Shown here: piece after piece, positions 2,294 to 59,400 of the stretch
Layout of the letters: the number at the start of each line of letters is the position of its first letter
Numbering within the stretch: the first letter of the stretch is position 1
Origin: Candidatus Omnitrophota bacterium
Lineage (GTDB): Bacteria; Omnitrophota; Gorgyraeia; Tantalellales; Tantalellaceae
Length of the DNA stretch: 64,000 nucleotides
Direction of reading: 5' to 3'
Assembly: GCA_041667545.1 (NCBI GenBank)
Contig: JBAYES010000003.1
Coordinates: forward strand, 2,467 to 66,466
The notes under the pieces: generated by a model
The model's input: only the letters and a program-made list of their open reading frames with translations
Databases searched by the model: none
Told to the model about the DNA's origin: nothing
Translations under genes and position numbers: made by a program

Positions 2294-4096
2294 ATGAGTG
2301 CAGAGAAGAAAAGAAAAAAGTTCGTAATTTACACACGCTGTTCAACTGATGATCAGGCAAAAGGTGACTTCACCACGCTTGACGCACAGGCTCACCACTG
2401 CCGGAATATGCTTGAAGCGTTCGGTTATGAAATGGCTGATTTCGGTGATAAAGGTATTATTAACGATGACGGTTATTCAGGCAAAGACCTGAACCGCCCC
2501 GGAATCCAGTCAATCCTTAAAGACATACAATCCAAAAAGTCGTTTGACGGAATCATATTTTTTAGGCTTGATAGGCTCACCAGAAACCCTCGTGACCTTT
2601 ACGGCATGATCGATACCTTCAAGGCTGAAGATATAGCCTTTTTATCCGTCAGAGAGAATCTTGATAGCACAACAGCCATAGGCAGAGTTGTGATCGGCAT
2701 CATCGGCTTATTATCAGCCTTTGAGCGTGAACTTACAGGCGAACGTGTAAAAGCTTCAGCTATCGCAAGAGCAAGACAAGGAAAATGGGTAGCGGGTAAA
2801 CCGCCTTACGGATACATACAAGTCAAAGACGGTGAAAGATTATCAAACGGTAGACAACCACACAAAATTGAACTTGATAAAAACCTTGCTCCTCATTTTA
2901 AGATGATCTTTGAAATGGCGGCTGATAACCATTCGCTCTCAACTATCGGCAACGAACTTATCAAAAGAGAAGTCCCCACAGCAAACGGCAACCTCTGGCG
3001 TAAACAGACTATTGCTAAAATACTAAAGAATCCATTTTATAAAGGAATGATTTCATACTCAGGCGAGATAAATAAAGGCAATCACGAAGCAGTTGTAGAT
3101 GAAGAATTATGGAGTAAAGCAAACAAGATAATATCCGCAAGCCTACCCGGACACAGGTTCTTGAAAACAACTCTGGACTACAGCCATCTGTTAAAGGGCA
3201 TTCTGTTCTGCGGAAAATGTGGGAGTTATTTTGTATCAACACACGCCCGAGGCAAAATGGGCAATAAGTTTTATTATTACGAATGCAGTCGAGCAAGACA
3301 AAAACTCGGATGCGATACTAAGCGCATATCAGCAACATCATTTGACCGGGCGGTTATTGACTTTTTAGGCAGGGCGTCCGAAGACCAGAATATTATTGTA
3401 AAAGCTATCGGGAACGCTATTGAGCATTCATCAACACAACTCGATAAATACGATAAGGAAATCCGCCAGTTAAAAAAGAAACTCGACAAAGCCAAAGACT
3501 CTGCTGATAAACTGCTTAACCTTGCCATAGAAAAGGTTATCACCAAGGGACGGACTTATTCAGAAAAAATGGACACACTTGAAACCGAAATCACCGTTCT
3601 TGAAGATAAACTCGGAAAAGCCAAAGCCCGAAGGAAAGCCGCTGAGATGACCGCTAACTCGAACGAATACCTGCACGCAAACCTACAGCTTGCCATGAGA
3701 TACCTCGATCAAGCCCCTCCAGACGCCCAAATCGCCCTTTTAAAGGCACTTATCAAGATACTCAAGGTTTATGACGATCATGTGAAGATGGAAATGTTTA
3801 TAAACGAACCGAACGATGAACTTGTGCAGAACTTACCACTGAAAGAGCCCCAAAAACAACGAACCCCGCTCCTTCTTGAGGAACAGGGTTCGACTGAGCG
3901 TCAACAATGGCGGCTCAGCGGGAACTATAGACGAAAGTCACAACTCCAAGAAATACAACTACTTGTGAAACTTTACAAAAAGCGAAGTATGGGTGCTCTC
4001 ATCTCATTAGGTAAACCAATCGATACTTCCCGCCGTTACGATAAAGGTATTCTATCACGAAACCGCGTAAAAGCCACCGAAACCGTAGTTTTATAA
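2294..4096 (+). CDS. large serine recombinase (resolvase/invertase N-terminal catalytic domain plus recombinase and zinc-ribbon/coiled-coil C-terminal part)
   Basis: Shows the N-terminal serine recombinase signature (VIYTRCSTDDQ...RLDRLTRNPRD). Length is 600 aa. Cys-rich CGKCGSYF...YYYECS region and a long coiled-coil are present. Strong RBS GGAGG. About 70% identical by eye to the second copy at 44423-46090. Confidence 0.85.
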   Translation: MSAEKKRKKFVIYTRCSTDDQAKGDFTTLDAQAHHCRNMLEAFGYEMADFGDKGIINDDGYSGKDLNRPGIQSILKDIQSKKSFDGIIFFRLDRLTRNPRDLYGMIDTFKAEDIAFLSVRENLDSTTAIGRVVIGIIGLLSAFERELTGERVKASAIARARQGKWVAGKPPYGYIQVKDGERLSNGRQPHKIELDKNLAPHFKMIFEMAADNHSLSTIGNELIKREVPTANGNLWRKQTIAKILKNPFYKGMISYSGEINKGNHEAVVDEELWSKANKIISASLPGHRFLKTTLDYSHLLKGILFCGKCGSYFVSTHARGKMGNKFYYYECSRARQKLGCDTKRISATSFDRAVIDFLGRASEDQNIIVKAIGNAIEHSSTQLDKYDKEIRQLKKKLDKAKDSADKLLNLAIEKVITKGRTYSEKMDTLETEITVLEDKLGKAKARRKAAEMTANSNEYLHANLQLAMRYLDQAPPDAQIALLKALIKILKVYDDHVKMEMFINEPNDELVQNLPLKEPQKQRTPLLLEEQGSTERQQWRLSGNYRRKSQLQEIQLLVKLYKKRSMGALISLGKPIDTSRRYDKGILSRNRVKATETVVL

Positions 4097-17979: not shown

Positions 17980-20900
17980 CTAATCCCAAGCAAGACTTAC
18001 TCCATGCAGTTTTACATCTTTGTTATTATGCGTTGTCAGCTTATATCTCACGTTATTATCCGCGCCCTGCCCGGACACATCAGCAACCGCATGCAAGATC
18101 CTTTTCCCTGTGCCGTAATCCCCTTCGTCTGAAAGATCCATATCTTCCCAAGTCGCTCCGTCATCACGCGAAACATATGCTTTTAAATCCGTATTAAGCG
18201 CGATACTCTCAACATCTTCTTCCTGCATAACTATACGCACGGTGTCCGGATTTTCTTCGGCTGGGAATTGAGCGCTTTTAAGTTCCATATTTTCAGGTGT
18301 GCCTTCATCGTATTCCGATGTAAGCGGAGTGAATGAAGCTGTATGCCTCGCTATGCCTTTAGAGATCCTGAGTTCATCCATACAACCCTTTAACCCGTAT
18401 CTTCTAGCGGAATAGGTTTCGTTACCGATCGTGACATTTGACGATGCCTGTATGTCGATCGCGCAGGTACCTGAATACACCAATGACCCGTTAATAAATA
18501 TGTGGAGCTGATTCGTTCCTGTCCCTGCCCGGCATACCTCTATGTGATACCATTCTCCGAAGATCAAAGGTAAAGTTGTCGTGTAATTCGTATCAACGAT
18601 ATACACCTGTATATAGTTTGTCGAAGTTTTACGAATCGTCCACGATACTCCGCCGCTATCGTAATTACTGACTAAAAAGTGTTCCGTCGCAGTTTCCAAT
18701 GGCTTATACCAGCAATCTATCGAGAAGTTGCCCGTCCCGAACTGGAAATCCGACCCGCCGGGTATTGTCAGATAATCGCTATTAGAAAACCCCTTATACA
18801 CCCCATCCCCAAAGACCGATACCCAGTCAAGCTTGGATGTACCTACACAAACAACACTGTACCCATTGGCACTCTCATCTATTATGATGCGATTTCGATA
18901 ATCTTCTGTAAATCGACAAACAACATCAGCATTGCGGGTTACCGTATGTCCGGTATTTCCATCATCGCTAAAAATGTTGCCGTTCGTATCATTAGGTGTA
19001 CCTTCAAAATGCATGAGTAGCTTGGTGTTTGAATCAGAAACAAAAGCTGTTGTCGGTGGTATAAAATTTGACGTATATCTCGCTGTGTTTGAGATCCTCA
19101 ATTCTCGCATCCACCCTTTACAGTTAGCTCCGCCACCACCCACTTCTCCAATTTTCACTAATAATGTTCCAGTAATATTTTTACTATTAGTTCCTGTAGC
19201 AGTAGCATTGCTCTGAACTCCGTTTATAAACATACGCAGATTACCGCTACTATCTCTGCATGTAGCAAAGTGATACCACATACCCGGGATCGGAGTAAAA
19301 CCTAACCCTTGATATTCAGTTGTGTTGAGATACGTATGAAACCCCGCAGTTCCGCCTCCATCATATATTGACATCCTGATCCCTGTTCCTGTTCCGCCAG
19401 AACCGATATCAACCATGCATGTGCCTCCTGCCGCCCCATCCCACTTAAAAAAACCCTCGATAGTGAAAGCCCCAGTTCCAAAATCCCAATCCGCATGGTC
19501 TGGTACTGAAAGCCAACAATCACTTGTTCCGTCAAAATATGCACTACTCCCTAAGGGATTATTTAAATCTTCAGGGGCATCGAAATTTAATAGCAGTAAA
19601 GTATTGGCGTCTGTCTCATACGGCAATGTCGGAGCTTCATTCTCTCGCACAGTATTCGAAATTCGAAAATATTTGATCCAGCTGTACGTGTGGCTGTTCG
19701 CGATGTTCTCACCGTACCTTAACGCCCCTATACCCACTTTCCCGGTCGGTGATACAGTAGTCGACGAGGTGCTTGATCCTACCAGTTTTTCGTTCAGGTA
19801 TATGCTGTAATTATTACCGTTTCTTATTATCCTTACGCGGTACCATGTGTTCTGGACTAAATACAATCCTGAAGCCGTGCAAAGTGAATACGTACCTCCC
19901 CACCCTATGCTTGAACTACTGATACTTAACCCTAAATATGACGAATCGCTGGTATAGTGAGTAAACGGATATCCTTGCGGCGTCTCGTGGAATAAGATCT
20001 CAAACTCTATTGTATAATTCGAGTTCCAGCATGTCGGCGTCCAGTCGATCTTTAAATAGTCCGAATCCCCGTCAAAGAAACCGGCTGTTTTGTTTAACCT
20101 GACAGGCATTAACGCGGCGTTATTGCTTGGTGTAACCGTTTGCCCGCTACTTGACACGTCAACAAAACCCGCGTCCGCGGAATAAAACTCAAGCCAAGAT
20201 AAATGCCCTTCGTCCGCTGTCTGTATCGATGAAAAACTGAATCTGTAATACCGATACGAGGTGCTGTTTGAAAATGAAAAGTATTTCCTCTCGCCCTGAC
20301 TCCAAGTGACCGACCGGGAATCAAGCGTGGCCCAGTTCGATCCGTCATTTGATCCTTGAAAAGTCCACGCATTGAATGTTCTGGCATAATAACTGTCGTT
20401 CTCTGATCCAAGACAATACCCTTTCAATACTTTCGTGATCCCGACACCGAAATCATATGTTAAGGTTTGGTTTGGGCCCTGATGAGCCTGATCTCCCCAA
20501 TAAGTCACTGAATTCTTGTCCAGAAGTTTGTCCGTATTGTACGCGCCTGACACGGTAAGTGAAGACGAAAAGTTACCCTGATACAAAATTTCTCCGGCCC
20601 CGTTAAAATGCATTAAGAGTTTCACATAACTATCCAACCCGCCTCCGCTTTTCAGCGGAGATACAACCCCATCATTAAGGGAATAATTGGAGCTTCCGCC
20701 TGAGTCTATTCCTGAACTATCCTCAAACGAATCCACTATGCCGTCGATCATGCCGAATTTTGATAAGCTTTCATTGCTGGCTATCTTGAAAAACGCGATC
20801 ATGATGTTGCCTTCGATACGATCGGCAAGTTTAAGCCTGCTGTTGACATATTTGATCGTGAAATCATCCACCGAATCACTCAAATCCGTTTCTTTGGGTA

Positions 20901-21399
20901 TCATATATAGCGGCCTTACATCCTGATATATGTACCCATCGTCCTCGTTGGCATCCTTGTCCTCAAAATTAACTATTTTTGTCATTGTCGTTCTGCAATA
21001 AACCGTGCATACGGCTATCGCCTCGTCCGGTAAGCCGCTCCATTTCGCTAAAGGCGTTATGTCTTCATCACCCGAAACCCACGCGAGATTCCCGGCACTA
21101 TTCAAGTACAGGATATCAATCCGGGCATATTCTGCCGGAGCAGTTATTCCCGGAGAATCCCCGCCTTCAAAAACGACGGGTTCTCCGTTACGGTGGATCT
21201 GGTTAAAATAATTTTCGACACTGCTGGAAGCCACATTCACTGTCATATCAGCCGTATCCTGCGCTCTTGCCCTTAACGCGGATACGTCTCCCTGAAATAA
21301 AGCGCTCAGCGCATTCCTGATATCGCTTGAAACCGGAGATCCGCCTGATACCGGTTTTGTGCTTTCGTTCCCTACCGCCGGAAATATAGCTTTTGCCAT
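17980..21399 (-). CDS. tail fibre / receptor-binding protein with discoidin (F5/8 type C)-like and concanavalin-A-like (LamG) lectin domains
   Basis: 1139 aa. Segment QTLTYDFGVGITKVLKGYCLGSENDSYYARTFNAWTFQGSNDGSNWATLD is discoidin-like. Repeated LamG-like segments are present. Position is immediately after the J-like gene. Confidence 0.55.
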   Translation of the reverse strand: MAKAIFPAVGNESTKPVSGGSPVSSDIRNALSALFQGDVSALRARAQDTADMTVNVASSSVENYFNQIHRNGEPVVFEGGDSPGITAPAEYARIDILYLNSAGNLAWVSGDEDITPLAKWSGLPDEAIAVCTVYCRTTMTKIVNFEDKDANEDDGYIYQDVRPLYMIPKETDLSDSVDDFTIKYVNSRLKLADRIEGNIMIAFFKIASNESLSKFGMIDGIVDSFEDSSGIDSGGSSNYSLNDGVVSPLKSGGGLDSYVKLLMHFNGAGEILYQGNFSSSLTVSGAYNTDKLLDKNSVTYWGDQAHQGPNQTLTYDFGVGITKVLKGYCLGSENDSYYARTFNAWTFQGSNDGSNWATLDSRSVTWSQGERKYFSFSNSTSYRYYRFSFSSIQTADEGHLSWLEFYSADAGFVDVSSSGQTVTPSNNAALMPVRLNKTAGFFDGDSDYLKIDWTPTCWNSNYTIEFEILFHETPQGYPFTHYTSDSSYLGLSISSSSIGWGGTYSLCTASGLYLVQNTWYRVRIIRNGNNYSIYLNEKLVGSSTSSTTVSPTGKVGIGALRYGENIANSHTYSWIKYFRISNTVRENEAPTLPYETDANTLLLLNFDAPEDLNNPLGSSAYFDGTSDCWLSVPDHADWDFGTGAFTIEGFFKWDGAAGGTCMVDIGSGGTGTGIRMSIYDGGGTAGFHTYLNTTEYQGLGFTPIPGMWYHFATCRDSSGNLRMFINGVQSNATATGTNSKNITGTLLVKIGEVGGGGANCKGWMRELRISNTARYTSNFIPPTTAFVSDSNTKLLMHFEGTPNDTNGNIFSDDGNTGHTVTRNADVVCRFTEDYRNRIIIDESANGYSVVCVGTSKLDWVSVFGDGVYKGFSNSDYLTIPGGSDFQFGTGNFSIDCWYKPLETATEHFLVSNYDSGGVSWTIRKTSTNYIQVYIVDTNYTTTLPLIFGEWYHIEVCRAGTGTNQLHIFINGSLVYSGTCAIDIQASSNVTIGNETYSARRYGLKGCMDELRISKGIARHTASFTPLTSEYDEGTPENMELKSAQFPAEENPDTVRIVMQEEDVESIALNTDLKAYVSRDDGATWEDMDLSDEGDYGTGKRILHAVADVSGQGADNNVRYKLTTHNNKDVKLHGVSLAWD

Positions 21400-34684: not shown

Positions 34685-36295
34685 TCAATCGGCATCGACA
34701 TCCGGCTTCGTGTCTCCATTAGGATCCTCTTCGTTTTCTTCGCCGGTGTTTTTCTGCTTTTCTTTTGCTTTGTTTTCATCTTTAACCTCAAGTCCGAGTT
34801 TTTTCATCTTTTCCTGCTCACGCTTACGCTGTTCAAAACTCTCTTCCCAATCTTTGCCGTCCTGCGCGTATAGATCCGAATACGTCACGATGCCGTTTCT
34901 TAAACCCACCTCGGCGGCCTGTGCTTCTTTAAGCGGATCTACCCATTCCCAGCCCGGGGCGATCCATGACGCGCCTGCCCAGCGTTGTCTTTTTTCATAA
35001 AATGTTCCTGAAGATATTTCTCGTTTTAGATATGCTTCTTCCAATAACATGTCCCAGACCGGCTGGCAGAATTTCTGCGCCAGCCATTCCTGACGCATCC
35101 TGAAATACCGCCGCGCTTCCAAAAGAGCCGCCCGCGCGCTTGAGTAATTTGTTTTCGAGAAATCCTTGGCCACAAGTTCATACGGAAGGCCTAAGGCCGC
35201 GGAGATGGCCTTAAGGATGCGGTCAACAAATGGTTCGAAACTCGATCCCGGACGCTGGGGATTAAACGACGTGATGCTTTCACCCGGCATAAGGTGCTTG
35301 ATCATGCCCGGCTCAAGACTTTCTATGAATTGCCCGGCCGTATTCTTTTCATAAACACCGCTTGAAGATATATCCATGGACGCTTCTGAAGTAATAAAAA
35401 GAGAGAAGCACGCGGCGATCCTCGCGGCCACGAGTTCGGCTTCCGCGTACTCCCCAAGATCTTTGAAATATGCAAGTACAGGCGCGAAGAACGGCACCCC
35501 GCGCGTCTGGCCCGAGCGCAAAACATAGTAGAGATGAAATACGTTGCGTCTGCCGTACTCGTTAAACGCCGGTATCTCTAAATAGTCCTTTTCTCCGCTC
35601 TTAGCAAAACGTATATCCCCGGGATGCGTTTTCTGAATGAAATATGAAACTGCCTCACCTTTTTCTCCTATGCGCACGCCGGATCGGATCGATTTATCCC
35701 CTCTTTTATCCGGCGGGGTATCCAATCTGTCAGACTCAATGATCTGTAATGCCGTTTTGTACGGCCGCGCCGGATCATCAATCAACATCGGTACGATCAA
35801 TGCTTCGCCGTTCTCCAATATTTGCCGGTCGACAAGCTGTTGTATCTCATAGAAATCCATACGCCTGCCCGCGTCAGCGTATGGTACCCACCTTTTCCAT
35901 ACCCGTTCCGCGTCTTTCTGAAATCTCCCTGCCGCCTCTTCGTCTATTTCAAGCTCTTCTTTATCAATTCGGGACTGCGGGCGAATGCCCGATCCGACCA
36001 CATTCACGGTCATGGTTGAAGTAATACCTGAAGCATGCGCGTCGTTACGGTTTAAATCACGGCTCCGTTCGCGTATGTCTTTAAGCTCCGGCAGTAAGTC
36101 AGCGTCGGCAGAACCGCCGCCCGGGATCCAAGACGACCTGAGCCGGTCGCGGGAAGCGCCCCTGTATGAGCTAAATGATCTTGTAACTTTTATAGCCTCG
36201 CGATACATACGCCTTTTAAGTCCCGCGCGCGGGGAGAAGAATGAAACAATGCCGTCTAAACTGTTGGATAATTTTTCGGTTAATGGTGTTTTCAT
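34685..36295 (-). CDS. portal protein, lambda gpB family
   Basis: 536 aa with an acidic C-terminus. Follows the gpW-like gene and the gpA-type terminase. Confidence 0.65.
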   Translation of the reverse strand: MKTPLTEKLSNSLDGIVSFFSPRAGLKRRMYREAIKVTRSFSSYRGASRDRLRSSWIPGGGSADADLLPELKDIRERSRDLNRNDAHASGITSTMTVNVVGSGIRPQSRIDKEELEIDEEAAGRFQKDAERVWKRWVPYADAGRRMDFYEIQQLVDRQILENGEALIVPMLIDDPARPYKTALQIIESDRLDTPPDKRGDKSIRSGVRIGEKGEAVSYFIQKTHPGDIRFAKSGEKDYLEIPAFNEYGRRNVFHLYYVLRSGQTRGVPFFAPVLAYFKDLGEYAEAELVAARIAACFSLFITSEASMDISSSGVYEKNTAGQFIESLEPGMIKHLMPGESITSFNPQRPGSSFEPFVDRILKAISAALGLPYELVAKDFSKTNYSSARAALLEARRYFRMRQEWLAQKFCQPVWDMLLEEAYLKREISSGTFYEKRQRWAGASWIAPGWEWVDPLKEAQAAEVGLRNGIVTYSDLYAQDGKDWEESFEQRKREQEKMKKLGLEVKDENKAKEKQKNTGEENEEDPNGDTKPDVDAD

Positions 36296-36507
36296 GACGG
36301 CCTCCCGAAGGAAGCGTATGTGGTTGTCCCGCCGGATCCCGCTATCTCACGACGCAATTGATCACGCCATTTTATGAGCCCCGGCAGTTCCGAACGCTGA
36401 ACGGTCCGCCCGGCAATCGAATACGATTGAACAGCGCCATTATTTATGAAAGTGTTAATGGCGATCTCAACGTTTTCGAGCATTTCTTGTTTTGTGGGTG
36501 CGGCCAT
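36292..36507 (-). CDS. head-tail joining protein W (gpW-like)
   Basis: 71 aa. Segment QEMLENVEIAINTFINNGAVQSYSIAGRTVQRSELPGLIKWRDQLRREIA matches the gpW pattern. Overlaps the portal start. Confidence 0.55.
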   Translation of the reverse strand: MAAPTKQEMLENVEIAINTFINNGAVQSYSIAGRTVQRSELPGLIKWRDQLRREIAGSGGTTTYASFGRPS

Positions 36508-36525
36508 TGTTCTCCTTAAAAGCCC

Positions 36526-36605
36526 AATAAAAAAGCCCGTTCCAGCTGGTGCACCAGAACGAGCTTTTTAAAATCTATTGGGCGCTAAAACGGTGATCAG
36601 CCGTT
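36526..36605. terminator. two hairpins with flanking A/T runs (36526-36570 bidirectional; 36580-36605 AACGG-tgatcag-CCGTT plus T-run) upstream of the DUF4238 gene
   Basis: Stems read directly from the sequence. They would insulate the opposite-strand DUF4238 gene from late transcription. Confidence 0.4.
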
Positions 36606-36687
36606 TAGCTTTTTATCTTCTACAAGTATGATATAATTAATTCGATTTTTCAATGGGGTCGATACTACAAAATAGTACGAGGATAAA

Positions 36688-37737
36688 ATGGCCGAATATA
36701 AGAAACAACATTATGTCCCAAGGTGCTACTTGAGATTTTTTTCAAATGACCAAACAAATAAATTAATCAATTTATACAACATAAAGAACAATCGCTGTAT
36801 TAACAACGCTCCCCTAAATGACCAATGCTATGAAAAATACTATTATGGCAAAAACCCAGAACAGGAAAAAAGGTTGTCAAAAATTGAAAGCGCGGCTACA
36901 TCTGCAATAGAAAACATCCTTAAAAATGGACGCTTGCCGAAAGTAAACAGTGAACAACATCTCGCATTGATTCTTTTTATTTTATTACAAACAGCCCGAA
37001 CCCCCTCTGCGGAATCGGATTCCATTTGTTCGTTTACTTCTCTCATAAAAGAACTGCTTATTTACGGAAATCCACAACATAAAAAGGCGATTAAAGAAGC
37101 AACAATAAGAATGTCAAACATGCCGTCAATAAATGTTGCTTCCGCCATCAGATCAATGTTCTTATTGTTTGATTTAAAATACAAACTCTTTAGAAACCGT
37201 TCCCATGAAGGTTTTATAACTTCAGACCATCCCGCTGTAAAATATAATTTTTTATACGAAAAGAGGAAAAACCATTTAACAAAAACAGGCTTTGCTACTC
37301 GTGGTCTTCAAATATTCATACCCATTTCTTCTCGATACTGCTTGATGTTTTATGATGGCACTTCTTATAAATTTGGTTTTCTGCGGCAAGATACTATAGA
37401 TGTAACAAAGCCGGAAACCGTAGACTCAATAAATTGTTTGCAACTGATAAATCGACCAAAAAATATTTATTTTGACAACATGGTTTCGTCGTCTTATGTT
37501 CAAAATATAGTTTCATCTAATCAAGGGTTGTTGGCTGACAGCAAATTTACTCTTAAAAAACACCCACAAGGTTTCTATCTTCATGAACAAACCAAAGATT
37601 TTAATCTTAAAATCCCTACCATCAGGATTATTCCCAATGCGCGTAAAGCAATAAAGACGTCTGATATACGTAACCCAGAATTATTACGACTCAATAATAT
37701 GCTTTTTGATAACGTTGACAAGCAAAACAAAAAATAG
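36688..37737 (+). CDS. DUF4238-family protein (anti-phage Rst_DUF4238-like); opposite-strand moron inserted between terminase and portal genes
   Basis: N-terminal signature KKQHYVPRCYLRFF. Gene is visibly AT-rich relative to flanking phage genes. Has its own TATAAT (36626-36631) and GAGGA RBS. It is the only plus-strand gene in the late operon. Confidence 0.6.
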   Translation: MAEYKKQHYVPRCYLRFFSNDQTNKLINLYNIKNNRCINNAPLNDQCYEKYYYGKNPEQEKRLSKIESAATSAIENILKNGRLPKVNSEQHLALILFILLQTARTPSAESDSICSFTSLIKELLIYGNPQHKKAIKEATIRMSNMPSINVASAIRSMFLLFDLKYKLFRNRSHEGFITSDHPAVKYNFLYEKRKNHLTKTGFATRGLQIFIPISSRYCLMFYDGTSYKFGFLRQDTIDVTKPETVDSINCLQLINRPKNIYFDNMVSSSYVQNIVSSNQGLLADSKFTLKKHPQGFYLHEQTKDFNLKIPTIRIIPNARKAIKTSDIRNPELLRLNNMLFDNVDKQNKK

Positions 37738-37749
37738 GCTTTTCCTGTT

Positions 37750-38007
37750 TTATCCCTCAGTTTCTACACTTTTAAACTTCTTCCCACACCCACGACACAC
37801 ATGATATCGTACCGGCAGTCGGCTCACATAGCATCGAACATCTTTGCTTTGGCATTTCGGGCAACGTAACGGGATAAACGTAACTCCGCACTGATCATCG
37901 TCTGCCGGAGTGGTCTCTTTTACAGGCTCATCTTCTTTAATCCAATTTTTGTATCTTTTTATCCATCGCCCCATTAAATCCACGATCCCTTTGTTTTGCG
38001 GAGCCAA
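37750..38007 (-). CDS. small zinc-ribbon protein (CxxC...CxxC)
   Basis: Motifs CPKCQSKDVRCY...CRGCGKKF. Overlaps the TerL 3' end. Confidence 0.4.
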   Translation of the reverse strand: MAPQNKGIVDLMGRWIKRYKNWIKEDEPVKETTPADDDQCGVTFIPLRCPKCQSKDVRCYVSRLPVRYHVCRGCGKKFKSVETEG

Positions 38008-39818
38008 CTCTCACGGTTCTGATCTTCCGTAACGACCTTATGAACACGCGGCGCGTTCTCCCGCCGCATGTTAAGGGCCCTTATAATATCCGCGGCCGCG
38101 AGCGCGTACACTTCGGCGTCCAGATAGTGATTAGCCGCGGATTCCTTCTTTTTCTGCCAGACCTCTTTGGCTTTGCCGGTTGTTCGGTTACGGACAAGTA
38201 CTTTATGCTCTGAAGTAAACTGCGCAAGATACTCATCACCGGGATTCCTGAAGATATGCCACTTACCCGGATTCTGCGACGTAACAAGGCGGTTCATCTT
38301 GTCTTTATACTGAGTGACGTTCAGATTCCAAAGCACAAGCCCTCCTGAAATGACCGCACCTGTACGTGAATTGATATCAATCTTGTTCGCCCTGTAGAAC
38401 CGGCCGCCGGTAATGTCCTCAAGCCCTTTGATCGCCTTTGCCTTATCCGGCCATTCGCGGCAAAAACGATACACCTCGTCCGTCCGGAAACCCGAATCGA
38501 CACATGTCATGTAAACGCCCAAAGCCTCGCCTGACCTTACCCGGCTGTATTCTGTTTTAAATATACTCTCGATGATATCTTCCCAATATTCAACCCTGTC
38601 GGCCCGGATAAGCCACGACTCTTCGTAATAACCCCAACCGCGAATAACGTAATAGAAATGATCTTTCTGCACATCAACACCGGCCGTCAGCACCAAGACC
38701 TCATCAGGAACAACGCACTGATCATAATCACGCGCAAGATTCCGCACCTTATCGACTGTTGTCTCCTCAATCTTCTCCTCCCAGACCTCGGCAAGCCAAG
38801 AATTAACGAAATTCATCAAAAGCTCAACGTAGTCTTTTGATTTCATAAATTCAGCCGCTATATCGCTCCACGTGAGCCACGGTGAATATAGCGAACTTAC
38901 CCAAAAGCCGCGGTTACGATTATGCCCATTTTTATCTGCTATCCATTCACCTGCTATCATCATTTTTTGTTTATGAATATCATCTATACGCTTTTTACAG
39001 TGGATGCATTCATACCAAGCAAGCCGGTTATTCTTGATCTGTTCGGCTGATGTTTCTTCTTTCGGCCATTTGATCTGTCCGAAAACAAATACCTGCCTTT
39101 TCCCGCAATGCGGACACGGCACATAAAACCTGCGTTGGTCGGATTTATCGTATTCGCGGAAGATGTATCCCTCGCGCGTGGTGGGTGTGGAAACTTTAAC
39201 CGTTTTTTTGTTCCAAAAGGTTTTCTGTCTCTCAGAAGCCAGCTTGATAGGATCCGCTTCCCGGCCCGAAAACTTCGGGTATTTGTCTACCTCGTCCAAA
39301 AAAAGATACCGGATCGGCCGCGAGGCAAGGTCCGCAGGGCTATTCGAACCGGCAAAATAAAGTATCATTCTGTCGAAATGATATTCGAGTTTTGTAATGT
39401 CATCGGCATTTGCCGGGATATAACGGTTTAAGACCGGCGAGCACTCTATCATCGGCCGGACGCGGTTATATGACACGCTTTTTGCGTCATCCGCGCGCGG
39501 TGAAACCATCAGTGTCGGCCCCGGATCCTGATCGATAATAAACCCAAGCATGTTATACATCGATTCAGTTTTTCCGACCTGTGACGCCGCCATGACCGTT
39601 ATCTCATCAACATATGGATCCGTAAACGCGTCCATGATCCCCTTAAGATATGGCGTGCGCGCTGTCGACCACTGGCCCGGCTCCGCTGACGTTTTCACAT
39701 CAAGCCGCCGGAATTGATCCGCCCATTCGCTCACTGTTATCTTGGCGGGTAATACCCACTCAACGGCCCCGTACGGTACAACTGTCTTAAGTATTTCTCT
39801 TCCCAGTTTTATTGGCAT
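37974..39818 (-). CDS. terL: terminase large subunit, lambda gpA family
   Basis: 614 aa. Walker-like AASQVGKTE and the gpA-type zinc finger CPHCGKRQ...CIHCKKR. Confidence 0.75.
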   Translation of the reverse strand: MPIKLGREILKTVVPYGAVEWVLPAKITVSEWADQFRRLDVKTSAEPGQWSTARTPYLKGIMDAFTDPYVDEITVMAASQVGKTESMYNMLGFIIDQDPGPTLMVSPRADDAKSVSYNRVRPMIECSPVLNRYIPANADDITKLEYHFDRMILYFAGSNSPADLASRPIRYLFLDEVDKYPKFSGREADPIKLASERQKTFWNKKTVKVSTPTTREGYIFREYDKSDQRRFYVPCPHCGKRQVFVFGQIKWPKEETSAEQIKNNRLAWYECIHCKKRIDDIHKQKMMIAGEWIADKNGHNRNRGFWVSSLYSPWLTWSDIAAEFMKSKDYVELLMNFVNSWLAEVWEEKIEETTVDKVRNLARDYDQCVVPDEVLVLTAGVDVQKDHFYYVIRGWGYYEESWLIRADRVEYWEDIIESIFKTEYSRVRSGEALGVYMTCVDSGFRTDEVYRFCREWPDKAKAIKGLEDITGGRFYRANKIDINSRTGAVISGGLVLWNLNVTQYKDKMNRLVTSQNPGKWHIFRNPGDEYLAQFTSEHKVLVRNRTTGKAKEVWQKKKESAANHYLDAEVYALAAADIIRALNMRRENAPRVHKVVTEDQNRESWLRKTKGSWI

Positions 39819-40413
39819 TCTGTTTCCCCGCGAATTGGTCGATTATGTACCTTATTTCCTGATCCAGAATTTCACACACAACCTTCGGATCCTGCTGATA
39901 AAGCTTCGGCGCGATATGTTTCGGCAACCTTAAAAATCCGGCTTTAATGCCCCTGATCTGATTCTTCACGATGGATACGTGATCTTCGAACGGTATAACC
40001 TCGCCTTCTTTCTGTTTTAGTTCTATCTCGCTTAGTTTCGCGCGATTCTTCCGGTATTCCTTGTCCCAATAGTCCTTGCCGTTGTCCTCTTCCGATCCCT
40101 GCTTCTTGTAAAACCATTTGAAAACATCCCCGACCTTAAACCGCGCGATCTCCCCGGACGCGTCCCTGAATACCGGCATACCCTGCTGAACATACCGCCT
40201 GATCATCCGCGGGGATTTCTCGAGATACACACATAAGGTCGGCAGATCTACCGTTCCATCGATGACTCCTGTGTGCCGCTGTTCCGATTTCTCGAACTCC
40301 TCAAGCTCTTTGAGTTCTTTCGACGACAGCGACCCGCGGCCCAGCTTTTCGACAATGGCGATATAACGTTTCTTCTTGGCAATATCAACAAGGTTGCGGT
40401 TCTTTTCATCCAT
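39787..40413 (-). CDS. terS: terminase small subunit (Nu1-like wHTH)
   Basis: Overlaps the TerL start. HTH segment LPTLCVYLEKSPRMIRRYVQQGMPV. Confidence 0.5.
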   Translation of the reverse strand: MDEKNRNLVDIAKKKRYIAIVEKLGRGSLSSKELKELEEFEKSEQRHTGVIDGTVDLPTLCVYLEKSPRMIRRYVQQGMPVFRDASGEIARFKVGDVFKWFYKKQGSEEDNGKDYWDKEYRKNRAKLSEIELKQKEGEVIPFEDHVSIVKNQIRGIKAGFLRLPKHIAPKLYQQDPKVVCEILDQEIRYIIDQFAGKQNANKTGKRNT

Positions 40414-43352: not shown

Positions 43353-43886
43353 TCACCTCAGATACTCTTCAAGCCCTACTTTTCTAAATACTTCACGAAT
43401 TCGTTTGATCTCATCCTGAAGGGTAGTCCGCGGGATATTCATTACGTCTCCGACCTTCACCTGACTCATCCCTTCCGACAAATACCGGCATATCTGCTTC
43501 TGCCTGAAAGAAAGGTTGGCCGTTGCTTTCGACATCGCCTCAGGAAGATCCGCCGCCGTTATTTTTATCGTTGTCTGTTCTTCAACCATCAGTATTCTCT
43601 CCTTCGTGCTGATCATTTTTTCGTCATCATCCATCGCGTCAAGCGATTCACTCTCATATGAAACTCTTCGTTTATTCGCGGCTCTTCTGCGTATAAGATC
43701 GGCTATTTTGTTACGTGTGACCCTGTTAAGGAATGTGCGCTCGGATGCCCCTGACTCGGAACGATACTGCTCTTTCATGAAAAACCAATGAATCAAACAT
43801 TCCTGCAAAAGATCTTCAATTCCTTCTTTCCGAAGACTCGCGTAGTCGCGTTGCGCGCCCTTGACAGAACAAAGAATCTCCCGCAA
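43353..43886 (-). CDS. sigma-70 family (ECF-like) sigma factor, candidate late-gene activator
   Basis: Region 2-like LIHWFFMKEQ...FLNRVTRNKIADLIRRR. Region 4 HTH LSFRQKQICRYLSEGMSQVKVGDVMNIPRTTLQDEIKRIR. Confidence 0.6.
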   Translation of the reverse strand: MREILCSVKGAQRDYASLRKEGIEDLLQECLIHWFFMKEQYRSESGASERTFLNRVTRNKIADLIRRRAANKRRVSYESESLDAMDDDEKMISTKERILMVEEQTTIKITAADLPEAMSKATANLSFRQKQICRYLSEGMSQVKVGDVMNIPRTTLQDEIKRIREVFRKVGLEEYLR

Positions 43887-44298: not shown

Positions 44299-44422
44299 GA
44301 TAGAAAGCAAGCATCTGTGATCCCCGACCTTAAGCACCCTAAGCCCTTGTTATAGCTTGACTTGGGATGCCTTCTATTATAGGGTTGGGTCGCATTGCGA
44401 AAAACGAATTCGAAAGGATGTT

Positions 44423-46150
<1,728 letters not shown>

Positions 46151-46165
46151 GCATTTCTAAGTTAC

Positions 46166-47320
46166 TTAATCTGAAGGACTTACGTGTAACAACTGTTTCT
46201 CTAACAATTCGATAGAACCCTGTGGTGCTTGTTTGGTGCTTATAATCGTCTCCATCATACTCCCCAAGGTGTCTACGGACTTAGCTTTATGCCCTTGGGA
46301 TAGATGGGAATACCTCATTGTCATCTTTATGTCCTTATGCCCCATCAGTTCCTTTACAGTCATAAGGTCTACCCCGTTCATCACAAGGTGACTTGCGAAG
46401 GTATGTCGTAGGTCATGCCAACGACAATGTGTGATTTTAGCACATCTTATCGCTTTTGAGAAGATTTTATCTACATTTTTAGGGAAGACTATTTCTGTAT
46501 CGTAATGTTCTCGTAAGTTAATAAGTTCCCTCTTTACTACTGCGTTCATAGGACACATTTTAGGCTCATTGTTTTTTGTCTTATGAACATATATGATGTT
46601 GTTCCTAAGGTCTATATCAGACCACTTCAGCCGCATCATCTCACCTCGTCTCATACCAGTGTTAAGTGCCGTAAGTACTGCTGCCTTGAGGTATGGGTCA
46701 CATACTTGTAATAACCGTGCTATTTCCTCTCTCTCCAAGTAACGGACTTTAACATTGTTCTCTCTAAGATGTTTTATAGTATCAAGAGGGTTCTTTTCAG
46801 CATAACCCCATTCGATAGCTTTTTTAAAGGCGGTCTTCATTATAGTGAGATATCGGTTCACCGTGGATGGTTCAATGCCTTCCTGAAGTTTGTGCTTCTT
46901 AAAATCTTCTATATCATAAGGTTTGATTTCATCAAGGTATTTACCCCTGCCTAGTACATCCGCGGCTGATGTAAGCCTTTGTACATCGTCTTTCCAAGAG
47001 GATTTGTTGGGTTTGGAGTATGTTTCGAGGAATAGGGTTATAAAGTCTATGAGTTTAATGCGTTTTACTTTGCTTTTATCGAGGAATTTCCCTTCGGCTA
47101 TTTCTGTTTTCCGTTTGGCAAGTACTGTTTCAGCGAGTTTCTTGTTGGGTCCTATAGTTTCCCGTGTCTGTCTACCATCCACATAGTAAGATATGCACCA
47201 AATACCCTTTCTATCTTTTCTTTGGTAGACTCCTTTCATTGTTCCCTCCCTTACCCTGACGCCAAAGCCTCCAACACCATAACAGTAAACTTCCAATAGA
47301 CCTGTCTTCTTCTCTGGCAT
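46166..47320 (-). CDS. tyrosine recombinase / phage integrase
   Basis: C-terminal catalytic region contains ...RWHDLRHTFASHLVMNGVDLMTVKELMGHKDIKMTMRYSHL (R...HxxR...Y). Has an N-terminal SAM-like domain. Confidence 0.85.
   Translation of the reverse strand: MPEKKTGLLEVYCYGVGGFGVRVREGTMKGVYQRKDRKGIWCISYYVDGRQTRETIGPNKKLAETVLAKRKTEIAEGKFLDKSKVKRIKLIDFITLFLETYSKPNKSSWKDDVQRLTSAADVLGRGKYLDEIKPYDIEDFKKHKLQEGIEPSTVNRYLTIMKTAFKKAIEWGYAEKNPLDTIKHLRENNVKVRYLEREEIARLLQVCDPYLKAAVLTALNTGMRRGEMMRLKWSDIDLRNNIIYVHKTKNNEPKMCPMNAVVKRELINLREHYDTEIVFPKNVDKIFSKAIRCAKITHCRWHDLRHTFASHLVMNGVDLMTVKELMGHKDIKMTMRYSHLSQGHKAKSVDTLGSMMETIISTKQAPQGSIELLEKQLLHVSPSD
46224..46248. repeat. 25-bp direct repeat GGTGCTTgTTTGGTGCTTAtAATcg inside the int 3' coding end; partner at 55886-55910
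   Basis: Left copy is ggtgcttgtttggtgcttataatcg; right copy is ggtgcttatttggtgcttagaatac. Confidence 0.6.
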
Positions 47321-56425: not shown

Positions 56426-59400
56426 TTAAAGTGAACGGTCTATCGCTTCCCAGGCGGCGCGTTGATTAGCGATATCCTGCCATTCTGCCAGCTGGATCGT
56501 TATAACGCTCCCGGGAGCGAAAAGACGCTTAATTATGTCCCTGGGGTCCTCTTCCCCGTCCAGCATAGCGGTAAGAAGGTAAAGAAGACCGCGGTAGTTA
56601 TTTTCGTCCTGTTTAGCCTCGGATGAAAGCCTGTCATACTCCAGCATATTGAACCCAAGCCCGAAAAGTGAAACAAGATCGGGGTCTTCTCCCGAGTCAA
56701 TTATCTGGAACACTATTCTCTCATCTTGCAGAGAAACCATCCGGCCGTCTATCTCTTCATATTTGAGAAATTTTTCTGCGCTTTCGGGCACCATTATAAC
56801 GGCGCGGCCGACCCAGTCTTTGTTCTCAGGAAGGTCAAGAGCTGATATACAGCTATCTACAGCCTCTCCTATGACCCGGGGAAGATCATGTTCGGTATAA
56901 AATTCCTTTATGTCCGACCGCGCGAAAAGTTTATACGGGAACTGGCCGAGATTCTTTATTATGCGCTGTATGTGTCCTCTTGCTCCGTTAACTCTCCCCA
57001 CCTGGACTACCTGACTCACAACGTTAAAATGCCCGGTCTTATGGTAATTCGACATCCCTTCCACCATACATCCTGTCCGCAGGGCCATGCGAAATTCAGC
57101 TCGCCTCTCTATCGGCTGCTTCTTGATCTCCGCTTTAATACGAGAAATACCCTCAATGCCGCCGCTCTTTTTTATGCTGTCCAACATTCCCCCAGTAAGG
57201 GCCAGGCGATCGAGCCTCTCCGCTTCAAATAGCGGGAGCAGACCATCCAGAGGCCCTTCGAGTCTCGGGGCGGCCCGGTTCGCAATGTGAGTTTGAAGTC
57301 CGGACGGGTCCATATCATTGAAAACTCCGGGTTCTTCTATACGATATATACCTGTACCCCTCACCGTACTTGTCCCCGGATAAACTATATCGGGCTCTTT
57401 TGCTTTCTCGTCGGATACCAGTATATCTTCAGTAGGCTCCGTAATAAGTATGGCGCCTTCTTCGGCTATGGAAAATATGTTGGAAAGCGCTATAAAGTTC
57501 CTTATCCGAGGTTCCTTTGCCTTTTCTTGAGCATCACGGCCGACTACCCTCGAATAATAAGATGTCAGGTAATACACATTACGGAAAAAGATAAAATCGG
57601 CTGTCCTCCCATAATTTTCAAAAGCGTCTTTCCGCACCTCCGCCATCCCTTCTCTGTCAAGAACATTGACCCTGCACGGTTTTATTGTAAGGCTTTCTAA
57701 TCCGTGCTCTGTTAGAGGAGAAAGGGCTTCTGTGAACTTATGCCCTCTTGCCGCCCCGTCGGATATCGGGATCAGGCTCTGATCCGCCTCCATAGCGTAA
57801 GCGACGACCGACCAGTCCGATCTTTTCTCCCCAGATTTATCGAGTTCTTTAAGAAACATTGCGAGAGTCTCCCTAAGCTCAACAGGCTCCCTGCCTATGC
57901 CAATAAAATGTAGCACTATCCGTTTCTGAAGGTTCGGATCGTTTTTCGTCCTAAGTATGAATTCCCTCAATTCGGATGAGAGTTTCTCTTTCTGGGCGGC
58001 CAATCTCATGTCCACTCCGTGGTCCGGAAGCCCGTACGCGAAGGCCATAGCCCCGGGATTGTAGCTGAGAAGGCGGTCGGCAAGATAAGCATCTTTCGCA
58101 TCTTCCAGGCCCAGATCTCTCAAATGACCTCTAAGCGCGCCTATCTCTTGCGGGGCTCGACCTTTAAGAACGGTTATTTCGATCTCGTCGGGTGAGGTTT
58201 CCGCGGAGCCGGGCGTCAAGTCCGTACTGGGAGAGACTATTTCTGTTTTTTCAGGCTTTCCTTCCGACGCGGGAGGTGCCATTGTTTTGGCTCCGGCAGG
58301 TACGGGCTTATCCGACAAAACGGGATCCTCCGCGGGAGTACCATGATATCTTTCTATTCTTGTATCAGCTCCGAAACCAGTCACATATAGGGGATCGGGG
58401 TCGCCCGCCATTACCCCGATAGGATTGACAAACTGATCTGTCCCCGTACGGGTCTCCTTTCCAGCTATAAAAGCTTCATTTACAGGTTCACCTTCTCTGT
58501 CCTGGGCATTTATCAGCTTAAGGGGATTATCCAATATCTTTCTCAAAAAGTCAGTTTCGCGCTTGTCCGTTACGTTAAGCGCTACAAATTTCTTGCCGTC
58601 CTCTCTTGCCCATTTAGCGAACAGGTTGTACGTGTTCTCTATTATCCGCCGGTGTTTCTCCCTGTCTTTGTCTTTGGCGGACAGAGAGACGATCTGCCTG
58701 TCTATGGCTTTAAACTTAGTATCCTGCTGAGAAGAAGAAAGCGCGATAGGATTCGCCCAGCCTATGCGTTCTTCTTCGATATATATGTCGTATTTCCCCG
58801 TCCTTTCCGGGTCGGCCTTCATAGTTATGGTCCCGTACCGGTTTTGCGGCGACAGATCCCTGAAAGTTACGCTTACAAATTTGTCATTATCGTGGATATA
58901 TCTCTCGATAAGATTGCCGCTTTTATCAACGACAAAATGCCTGTGACCATGCTTATCCCTTATGGTCAAGTGCCCCGGGAACTCAATACCGGGCCGGTTG
59001 ACCGAGATCTCAAGTTCCGTTTTCTCTATCCGGGAAAGCCTTTTCAGAATCCTTTCACTCACTTTGCCATCCGTTGTGAACAATCGTTTAAGATAGAACT
59101 TCACGATACTTTCTTTAATGCCGGGGAATATCTCTGTCAGTGAGGCGGGATTTAGGGTTTCTCGAAGGACAGCGAATGTCCCGTAAGCGAAGACCGCGGC
59201 GGTAATGAACATAATAACCGCTCCGGCCAGCATAAGCCCCATACCTCCACTTGCGCCCATCTCCGCTATGGCCTTCCCGGTTAAAAATAACGCCGGCCCG
59301 GCGGCGGAATAGAGTACGGGAACCCGCATCGTCTGCTCTTCGCTAACGACCGGCCTTACCAGAGCGGGTTCGGAAATTATCTTTTTGAGCGTACCCTCTT

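Follow-up and report, generated by a model that had tools for sequence, protein, structure and literature searches.

A gene that stands backwards among the late genes of a phage raises the question of how it is placed there, how it could be expressed, and what it does for its carrier. The case considered here is the gene of a DUF4238-family protein in a stretch of 64,000 nucleotides (the window) from a Candidatus Omnitrophota bacterium (GenBank assembly GCA_041667545.1, contig JBAYES010000003.1, positions 2,467 to 66,466 of the forward strand), where an open reading frame (ORF) of 349 amino acids, starting with MAEYKKQHYVPRCYLRFF, occupies positions 36688-37737 of the plus strand. An earlier note on this DNA had described it as a defence gene of the moron type, inserted at an unusual location inside a late operon. 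The analysis points to a probable answer, namely that it is a single-protein anti-phage cargo gene of a temperate phage, expressed in the lysogen, and it places the gene at an insertion site which is used by a whole family of phages.

An insertion hotspot between packaging and head genes

Related loci (designated below by L numbers) were collected by an IMG/VR search with the terminase, which yielded 76 loci, and by an exact-motif scan of viral and metagenome contigs, which added 53 more. After deduplication 81 distinct junctions possessed both a Zn-ribbon gene, following the gene of the terminase large subunit (terL), and a gpW-like gene. Seventy of these junctions were empty, with a median Zn-ribbon-gpW distance of 188 nt, and 11 were occupied by cargo. 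The site is a family-wide insertion hotspot at the boundary of the packaging block (terS-terL-Zn-ribbon) and the head block (gpW-portal onward), and not the one-off location supposed earlier. The note had also named an unrelated structural gene, consistently carried at this position by homologous prophages, as the observation that would speak against its view; most junctions hold nothing. Against GenBank phages, blastn of the 7.5-kb region in distant mode gave one trivial terminase match only, and tblastn of the DUF4238 protein found one phage only.

The DUF4238 gene was present at the same site and in the same orientation in two more lineages, L002 (GCA_043955465.1; 78% identical) and L089 (74%), all three copies being 349 amino acids long. 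Other cargo lying backwards to the late genes encodes a 199-aa membrane protein without family match (L022, 8069-8668; L117; L134), a TIR-like protein followed by ORFs of 160 and 67 aa (L127, 1023-2291), a rare 587-aa protein with homologues containing HNH (PF01844) and SEC-C (PF02810) domains, of which 16 were found (L130, 645-2408), and a 185-aa protein that is NYN-like by eye alone (L146, 1234-1791). All of this backwards cargo is AT-rich, with a GC content of 0.29-0.36. The homologues listed for the TIR-like protein all carry PF08937, several of them being named "TIR domain-containing protein", and it showed a weak match to the ThsB structures 6lhy and 9b7d. This gene, with the same site, orientation and promoter element as described below, brings a likeness to Thoeris ThsB-type TIR-like proteins (PF08937) at the level of the site and not of the DUF4238 protein, and it differs from Thoeris in that no ThsA-like partner was identified in L127. 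Cargo transcribed in the same direction as the late genes includes a WYL-like protein in L027 and, in more distant relatives, another WYL-like protein (L072; no gpW-like gene was found within this locus), LamG-like secreted proteins (L060, L069), a Kelch-like protein (L061), and a diversity-generating retroelement with an Mtd second-domain target and an RVT_1 reverse transcriptase (L075, 4731-8518; terL 53% identical).

The break points of the insert were obtained by blastn against empty-site relatives (L067, L015, L012, L009) and relatives with other cargo (L022, L027). Homology reaches position 36677 on the gpW side, 11 nt before the cargo ATG, while its limit toward the Zn-ribbon gene falls at 37752-37772. 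What the empty-site relatives lack (36678-37749) consists of the ORF with 10 nt upstream, which contain the ribosome-binding site, and 12 nt downstream; the DUF4238 gene is its sole ORF, and the inserts of L002 and L089 likewise hold one ORF only. The Shine-Dalgarno sequence GAGGA (36679-36683, plus strand) is located 4 nt before the ATG inside the 10-nt stretch unique to this locus. From the conserved region to the cargo ATG there are 4 nt in L002, 10 nt in L089, and 22 nt in L022, and with such short spacers the cargo ORFs are joined almost directly to the resident conserved intergenic region. Arrival of the whole upstream region together with the gene was considered and rejected on account of its homology to empty-site relatives.

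The Zn-ribbon protein is 48% identical to those of the phages with the closest terL (90% identity) and 63-71% identical to those of L002, L022, and L027. In view of this difference in subtype, the Zn-ribbon gene was probably exchanged between phages jointly with the cargo and a part of the intergenic region, and the cargo was then swapped within that subtype.

In the window the minus-strand phage ORFs are nearly gapless over 16361-44196 (about 27.8 kb), and their only large gap, 36508-37749, is filled by the DUF4238 gene. It is the only non-nested plus-strand ORF of at least 70 aa in this span, where two further free plus-strand ORFs are small (64 and 69 aa). The description of a sole plus-strand gene among minus-strand late genes is borne out for sizeable ORFs, and the 22 kb given for it earlier was conservative. 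Its antisense position between terminase and portal was also correctly recognized, with the Zn-ribbon and gpW-like genes intervening as well. On the upstream side of the late direction stand the small terminase subunit (39787-40413, minus strand; PHROG 57), the terminase large subunit with gpA ATPase and nuclease domains (37974-39818, minus strand), and the Zn-ribbon gene (37750-37974, minus strand), which encodes 74 aa with four cysteines, has only generic Zn-ribbon Pfam matches, and is kept in nearly all relatives. The ATG of the Zn-ribbon gene overlaps the terL stop codon (TAATG), and its own stop codon forms the other edge of the cargo site. Beyond the cargo and the leader, the first gene is the gpW-like head-tail connector (36292-36507, minus strand; PHROG 5774 and PHROG 118, head-tail joining/adaptor), conserved in the relatives and followed by the lambda-family portal (34685-36295, minus strand). 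Instead of "inside the late operon", the place is more aptly called a boundary, with the terS-terL-Zn-ribbon block on one side and on the other a leader of the head genes which resembles a promoter followed by a terminator.

The gene is markedly AT-rich, as had been stated: its GC content is 0.340 (0.323 at third codon positions) versus 0.49-0.53 in terL, gpW, and portal, and it makes up the lowest 1-kb GC value of the whole window. Codon adaptation measured against the late genes did not help to distinguish it, the index being 0.71 for the DUF4238 gene and 0.72-0.79 for its neighbours.

A candidate cargo promoter within the head-gene leader

The plus strand carries an extended -10 element TGATATAAT which faces the DUF4238 gene (36629-36637, with TATAAT at 36632-36637 and TG at 36629-36630), this TGnTATAAT preceding the cargo start by about 45 nt. 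It was present at 7 of 7 complete junctions where the first cargo gene runs backwards (the window, L002, L022, L117, L130, L134, and L146), at none of the 70 empty junctions, and at none of the 4 junctions whose cargo runs in the direction of the late genes; it also occurs in the partial loci L089, L114, L127, and L142. No good -35 hexamer was found upstream of TGATATAAT in the window, which is the reason why a generic promoter scan missed it; an absent -35 is usual for extended -10 promoters. The TATAAT and the ribosome-binding site that the gene had been credited with are both found, and the former belongs to an element tied to backwards cargo, whose role as a promoter is putative by consensus.

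This element lies within the leader of the head genes (36508-36677, minus strand), which is conserved, being present in 54 of 59 distinct relatives, and was compared with the corresponding region of L008-L083 and L095-L147. Read in the late-gene direction, the leader comprises the dyad with ACGACC, a sigma-70-like pair, a small hairpin, CCCAAT, a large hairpin with TTTTTTATTGGG, and the ribosome-binding site and ATG of gpW. Its first component, TACTAttttGTAGTAtCGACC (36657-36677, minus strand), is formed by the dyad TACTA-N5-TAGTA and then GTAACGACC, occurs once in the window, and is conserved across relatives; it is located just upstream of the late-direction -35-like hexamer and at the same time inside the 5' leader of the DUF4238 transcript. 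The promoter scan detected the putative late-direction sigma-70-like promoter TTGAAA-17-CATACT with 9 of 12 matches (36625-36653, minus strand). In the relatives the corresponding pair, TTGnnA and TAnnAT separated by 16-17 nt, keeps a fixed place at -141 to -161 from the gpW ATG, and almost every empty-site locus has it with a score of 8-10 out of 12. The promoter of the window is weaker by consensus than those of the empty-site relatives, and its -10 region abuts TGATATAAT of the plus strand. At occupied sites in general the extended -10 overlaps or abuts the late-direction -10, and in L089 the two strands of the sequence ATGATATAAT read TATAAT and TATCAT, respectively. We infer a resident cargo promoter that would compete for space with the head-gene promoter.

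According to the proposed mechanism the DUF4238 gene would be transcribed backwards to the late genes from the resident sigma-70 extended -10 promoter TGATATAAT. A promoter restricted to sites with backwards cargo and abutting the -10 of the head-gene promoter-like element would most likely be active in the lysogen, when late genes are silent. At the other end of the gene, the terminator scan found no convincing terminator 3' of the stop codon, the region 37700-37800 shows no significant hairpin (z = -1.2), and 12 nt separate the DUF4238 stop from the converging Zn-ribbon stop. Transcription is accordingly expected to continue, in antisense, into the Zn-ribbon and terminase genes; this would be harmless in the lysogen and would conflict with late transcription in lytic growth.

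Two side observations concern the dyad element. The core GTAACGACC-N3-TTG(N3)AAGATT recurs in other intergenic regions of related contigs (L116, L118, L131, L136, L139-L141, and L145), where it is oriented with the genes and in some cases stands twice in tandem at a distance of about 72-80 nt; it may serve the family as a promoter or as the site of a regulator. The idea that the GGTCGTTAC/dyad element serves as a promoter toward the cargo was dropped, since in other loci the genes run the opposite way and the element is thus oriented with the late genes. The Zn-ribbon protein, whose gene adjoins the dyad upstream of the promoter-like element, has an RYHxC motif in common with P2 Ogr. A role as Ogr/Delta-type late activator on the adjacent dyad was considered as well, and the homology has no statistical support: hhalign gave a probability of 7.7%, and only 2 of 27 members weakly match Pfam Ogr_Delta.

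The gene had further been thought to be shielded upstream by two hairpin terminators. Both hairpins exist. The small one, AAACGGTGATCAGCCGTTT (36588-36606), was recovered by RNAalifold with 5 pairs, all with compensatory changes, in 31 relatives; the program recovered this hairpin alone, since alignment indels broke the large one, which was judged by folding each sequence singly and by eye. The large hairpin (36523-36582, minus strand) has the shape of an intrinsic terminator, a GC-rich stem and then TTTTTTATTGGG, and ends about 15-20 nt before the region of the gpW ribosome-binding site and ATG. When the hairpin stretch was folded as RNA, the z value was -5.0 for the plus strand and -5.5 for the minus strand, the latter with -43 kcal/mol for the 118-nt leader, and a hairpin of -20 kcal/mol or below with a run of at least 5 T was present in 54 of 59 distinct relatives, built from several different stem sequences. 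An Rfam search found nothing meaningful in 36200-38100. Since the hairpins stand at empty sites too, they are parts of the conserved gpW leader which were not brought with the gene, and not the shield of the cargo. The T-run of the large hairpin lies 3' of the stem on the late-gene strand, and with the A-run on its other side this hairpin is potentially bidirectional; a plus-strand T-run after the small hairpin, limited by eye (uncounted) to cargo-bearing loci, may fit the idea of shielding weakly.

There is no room for another promoter between the terminator-like hairpin and gpW, so that head-gene expression seems to need terminator read-through or antitermination. Such a layout resembles the pR'/tR' arrangement of lambda.

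The classical lambdoid moron of the Juhala/Hendrix concept is a promoter-gene-terminator unit between genes that are adjacent in related phages. The DUF4238 gene corresponds to it by insertion between genes that are adjacent in 70 of the 81 junctions, by its distinct composition, and by a putative promoter element, and differs from it by the lack of a terminator and by the location of the promoter element in the resident intergenic region and not in the unique insert, the ORF being fused after 5-22 nt. The designation as a moron is therefore only partly appropriate. The closest architectural analogue is P2 (AF063097), where the non-essential lysogenic-conversion genes orf30 and fun(Z) stand backwards after the terminator of a late operon and before the activator site and promoter of the following one, which matches the layout of the window between the Zn-ribbon gene and the gpW leader; moreover, fun(Z), tin, and old of P2 block other phages. 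In contrast, the P2 proteins are unrelated to the DUF4238 protein, a terminator is annotated before the P2 backwards gene while none was seen between the Zn-ribbon gene and the cargo of the window, and the late activator of P2, Ogr, is known, while the likeness of the Zn-ribbon protein to it is doubtful.

The DUF4238 protein and its possible function

The assignment to DUF4238 made by the earlier note was verified by a hidden Markov model search against Pfam, in which PF14022 matched with 134.3 bits (cut-off 27; E=7e-39) over residues 6-263 and profile positions 1-278 of 281; PF14022 is also carried by all 120 homologues among the matches listed. The N-terminal signature is present as H-[YF]-[VL]-x-x-x-Y-L-x-x-F and is conserved among 62 homologues, in which 14 residues are invariant (H8, P11, Y53, E67, R104, S179, P182, N187, G206, P212, D223, Y227, N249, and R328) and Y14, L15, F18, F176, I177, T178, and D180 are at least 90% conserved; the central motif F-I-T-S-D-x-P is conserved likewise. 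The AlphaFold2 model is confident (predicted local distance difference test, pLDDT, 93; predicted template modelling score, pTM, 0.91) and combines a beta unit at the N-terminus with a helical insert (residues 57-160) and a core rich in beta structure, which bears FITSDxP. The invariant polar residues H8, Y53, E67, R104, S179/D180, N187, D223, Y227, N249, and R328 in this predicted alpha/beta fold with a helical insert suggest an enzyme rather than a scaffold. In the BFVD viral structure library the single significant match was an uncharacterised protein (E=9e-7) of Stenotrophomonas phage Smp131, which we take to be P2-like.

A single DUF4238 gene cloned from a P2-like hotspot of E. coli TA007 was reported to confer strong T7 resistance, with molecular function unknown (Rousset et al. 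2022, PMC9122126), and a later review lists Rst_DUF4238 among the systems without clear domain assignment (10.1101/2024.10.26.620412). The TA007 protein sequence was taken from Table S2 of Rousset et al. (PMC9122126). Comparison by hhalign gave a probability of 97.9% over 216 columns with 17% identity, and the aligned positions include the N-terminal H-[YF]-x-x-x-x-Y-L-x-x-F, the E and R of the helical part, and F-I-T-S-D-x-P; BLASTP gave 21% identity over 113 aa (E=0.003). The protein of the window is thus a member of the same Pfam family and, by these alignments, a remote homologue of the validated protein, while it stands outside the defence family as PADLOC defines it. The link to Rst_DUF4238 drawn earlier accordingly stands for the Pfam family and the common motifs and has to be loosened in that the homology is remote and the membership model of PADLOC does not include the protein.

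The two genes are alike in belonging to PF14022, in being single and AT-rich, in having both the N-terminal H-x-x-x-x-x-Y-L-x-x-F and the F-I-T-S-D-x-P motifs, and in their location, a small hotspot of variable content which is flanked by conserved genes of a temperate phage. They differ in length (349 aa in the window versus 309 aa, with an extra C-terminal region past the Pfam domain), in the type of phage (lambda-type gpA terminase and portal in the window, P2-type in E. coli), in host phylum, and in the hotspot itself, which is the terminase/portal junction in the window and lies next to cos in the E. coli prophage. Given the remote homology to the T7-blocking protein, the common core motifs, and the defence-like genes at the site in relatives, the DUF4238 protein alone would most likely protect the lysogen from other phages.

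A number of observations weigh against this interpretation. The PADLOC DUF4238-Pers model (PDLC03000) did not match the protein of the window at E<=1, while the TA007 positive control scored 718 bits, and the same model matches only 9 of 62 members of the subfamily of the window protein (best E 1.4e-7). Phage resistance was assayed for the E. coli TA007 protein only, with T7, and that protein lies outside this subfamily, the identity between the two being just 17-21% in the alignments. Neither PHROGs nor NCBIfam yielded a match for the protein, and Foldseek against the PDB found no match to the predicted fold at E<=0.001; a profile search of PDB sequences likewise found no relative, so that the mechanism cannot be read from structure. 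The promoter activity and its timing are deduced from consensus matches, with the sigma-70 specificity of the host assumed to be as in model bacteria. Finally, the cargo of the hotspot is not solely defence-like, as the same-direction cargo includes the retroelement and the LamG-like and Kelch-like proteins, and the genomic contexts of homologues are mixed, some of them lying among housekeeping genes.

These points lead to the main rival, an accessory benefit other than anti-phage protection, such as a change of metabolism or surface, addiction, or counter-defence, with DUF4238 being a broad enzyme family of which one branch is antiviral. The remoteness of the validated protein, the silence of the PADLOC model, the retroelement and lectin-like proteins at the hotspot in relatives, and the placement of some homologues among housekeeping genes (L084) are all in its favour. 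Other homologues are found near integrases and a PD-(D/E)XK protein (L086), near a KAP NTPase (L087), adjoining a Schlafen AlbA_2/HATPase_c_4 protein in an AT-rich contig (L004, 59% identical), and, in an Oscillospiraceae phage, between a serine recombinase and an excisionase-like gene (32% identical). In these comparisons the contexts fit a mobile single-gene accessory element and stop short of proving defence. However, the core motifs are common with the validated anti-T7 protein, the backwards cargo with the same promoter element is mostly defence-like (TIR-like, HNH and SEC-C), and the cargo that is not defence-like runs in the same direction as the late genes, in distant relatives without the conserved leader. 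A non-defence role is consequently regarded as rather unlikely.

Less probable still is expression during lytic growth through the dyad/GTAACGACC element of the phage, perhaps with the extracytoplasmic function (ECF)-type sigma factor of the phage, so that the protein would act in the producing cell, for example by excluding co-infecting phages or satellites late in infection. The conserved phage element 36657-36677 is indeed part of the DUF4238 leader, a sigma factor is among the gene products of the phage, and the element recurs at other gene junctions in related contigs. Nevertheless, every other locus examined has this element in the orientation of the late genes, no feature is specific to the cargo except the sigma-70-type extended -10 of the opposite strand, and backwards placement in a late block is typical of lysogen-expressed conversion genes (P2 fun(Z), orf30). 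Expression in the lysogen from TGATATAAT remains the preferred reading.

The selection acting on the gene was estimated from the window and L002 copies, whose nonsynonymous and synonymous differences (pN 0.117, pS 0.69) give a ratio of nonsynonymous to synonymous substitution (dN/dS) of 0.066, so that the gene is kept by purifying selection. The divergence of the two copies is similar to that of the flanking terL and portal (78% versus 71-72% identity). Their GC content stays at 0.32-0.34 (window and L002, 2070-3119) with flanking genes at 0.44-0.50, and this low value in both lineages despite near-saturated synonymous sites means that the AT-richness is maintained and does not point to a recent arrival. 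The view of the gene as a new, selfish or decaying passenger without current function, for which the strong compositional contrast and the missing terminator could be quoted, is hardly credible in view of this selection, of the divergence in step with the flanking genes, of the full length of 349 aa retained in two other lineages at the site, and of the 14 residues invariant among 62 homologues.

Wider reading and other features of the window

A more far-reaching reading joins these results, and it is put forward tentatively, as a possibility with more doubt than support in its favour. In it the junction would be a dedicated cargo-expression site, where AT-rich defence candidates of one or two genes (DUF4238, TIR-like, HNH/SEC-C, membrane protein) are swapped precisely between the Zn-ribbon stop and the late-gene control element; the two-faced -10 (ATGATATAAT) would make cargo expression in the lysogen and head-gene expression in the lytic cycle mutually exclusive at one RNA-polymerase site, and the DUF4238 branch would represent a new class of antiviral enzyme with a fold absent from the PDB.

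Prophage hotspot cargo and the DUF4238 family are of an already known kind, and new are the defined hotspot, a branch that goes undetected by the PADLOC model, and a fold without solved relative. If the protein is antiviral, DUF4238-type defence would reach beyond the P2-like prophages of enterobacteria and include phages that are assigned to the candidate phylum Omnitrophota. The cargo promoter would be built into the same control region as the head-gene leader, and because the flanks are conserved, the boundaries nucleotide-exact, and the cargo short, the junction could be mined for more candidates. With a confident predicted fold and clear invariant polar residues, DUF4238 is also a reasonable target for structural and mechanistic study.

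Several other features of the window were recorded. The ECF-type sigma-70 family factor (43353-43886, minus strand; TIGR02937 and Sigma70_r2) has its gene on the upstream side of the late block and may be responsible for transcription of the middle or late genes. The window also encodes two large serine recombinases and one tyrosine integrase (2294-4096, plus strand; 44357-46090, plus strand; 46166-47320, minus strand). A tail-region protein of 1139 aa (17980-21399, minus strand), with three LamG-like domains and an F5/8 type C domain, is likely a receptor-binding protein. Outside the phage block there is an ORF of 2510 aa (56426-63958, minus strand).

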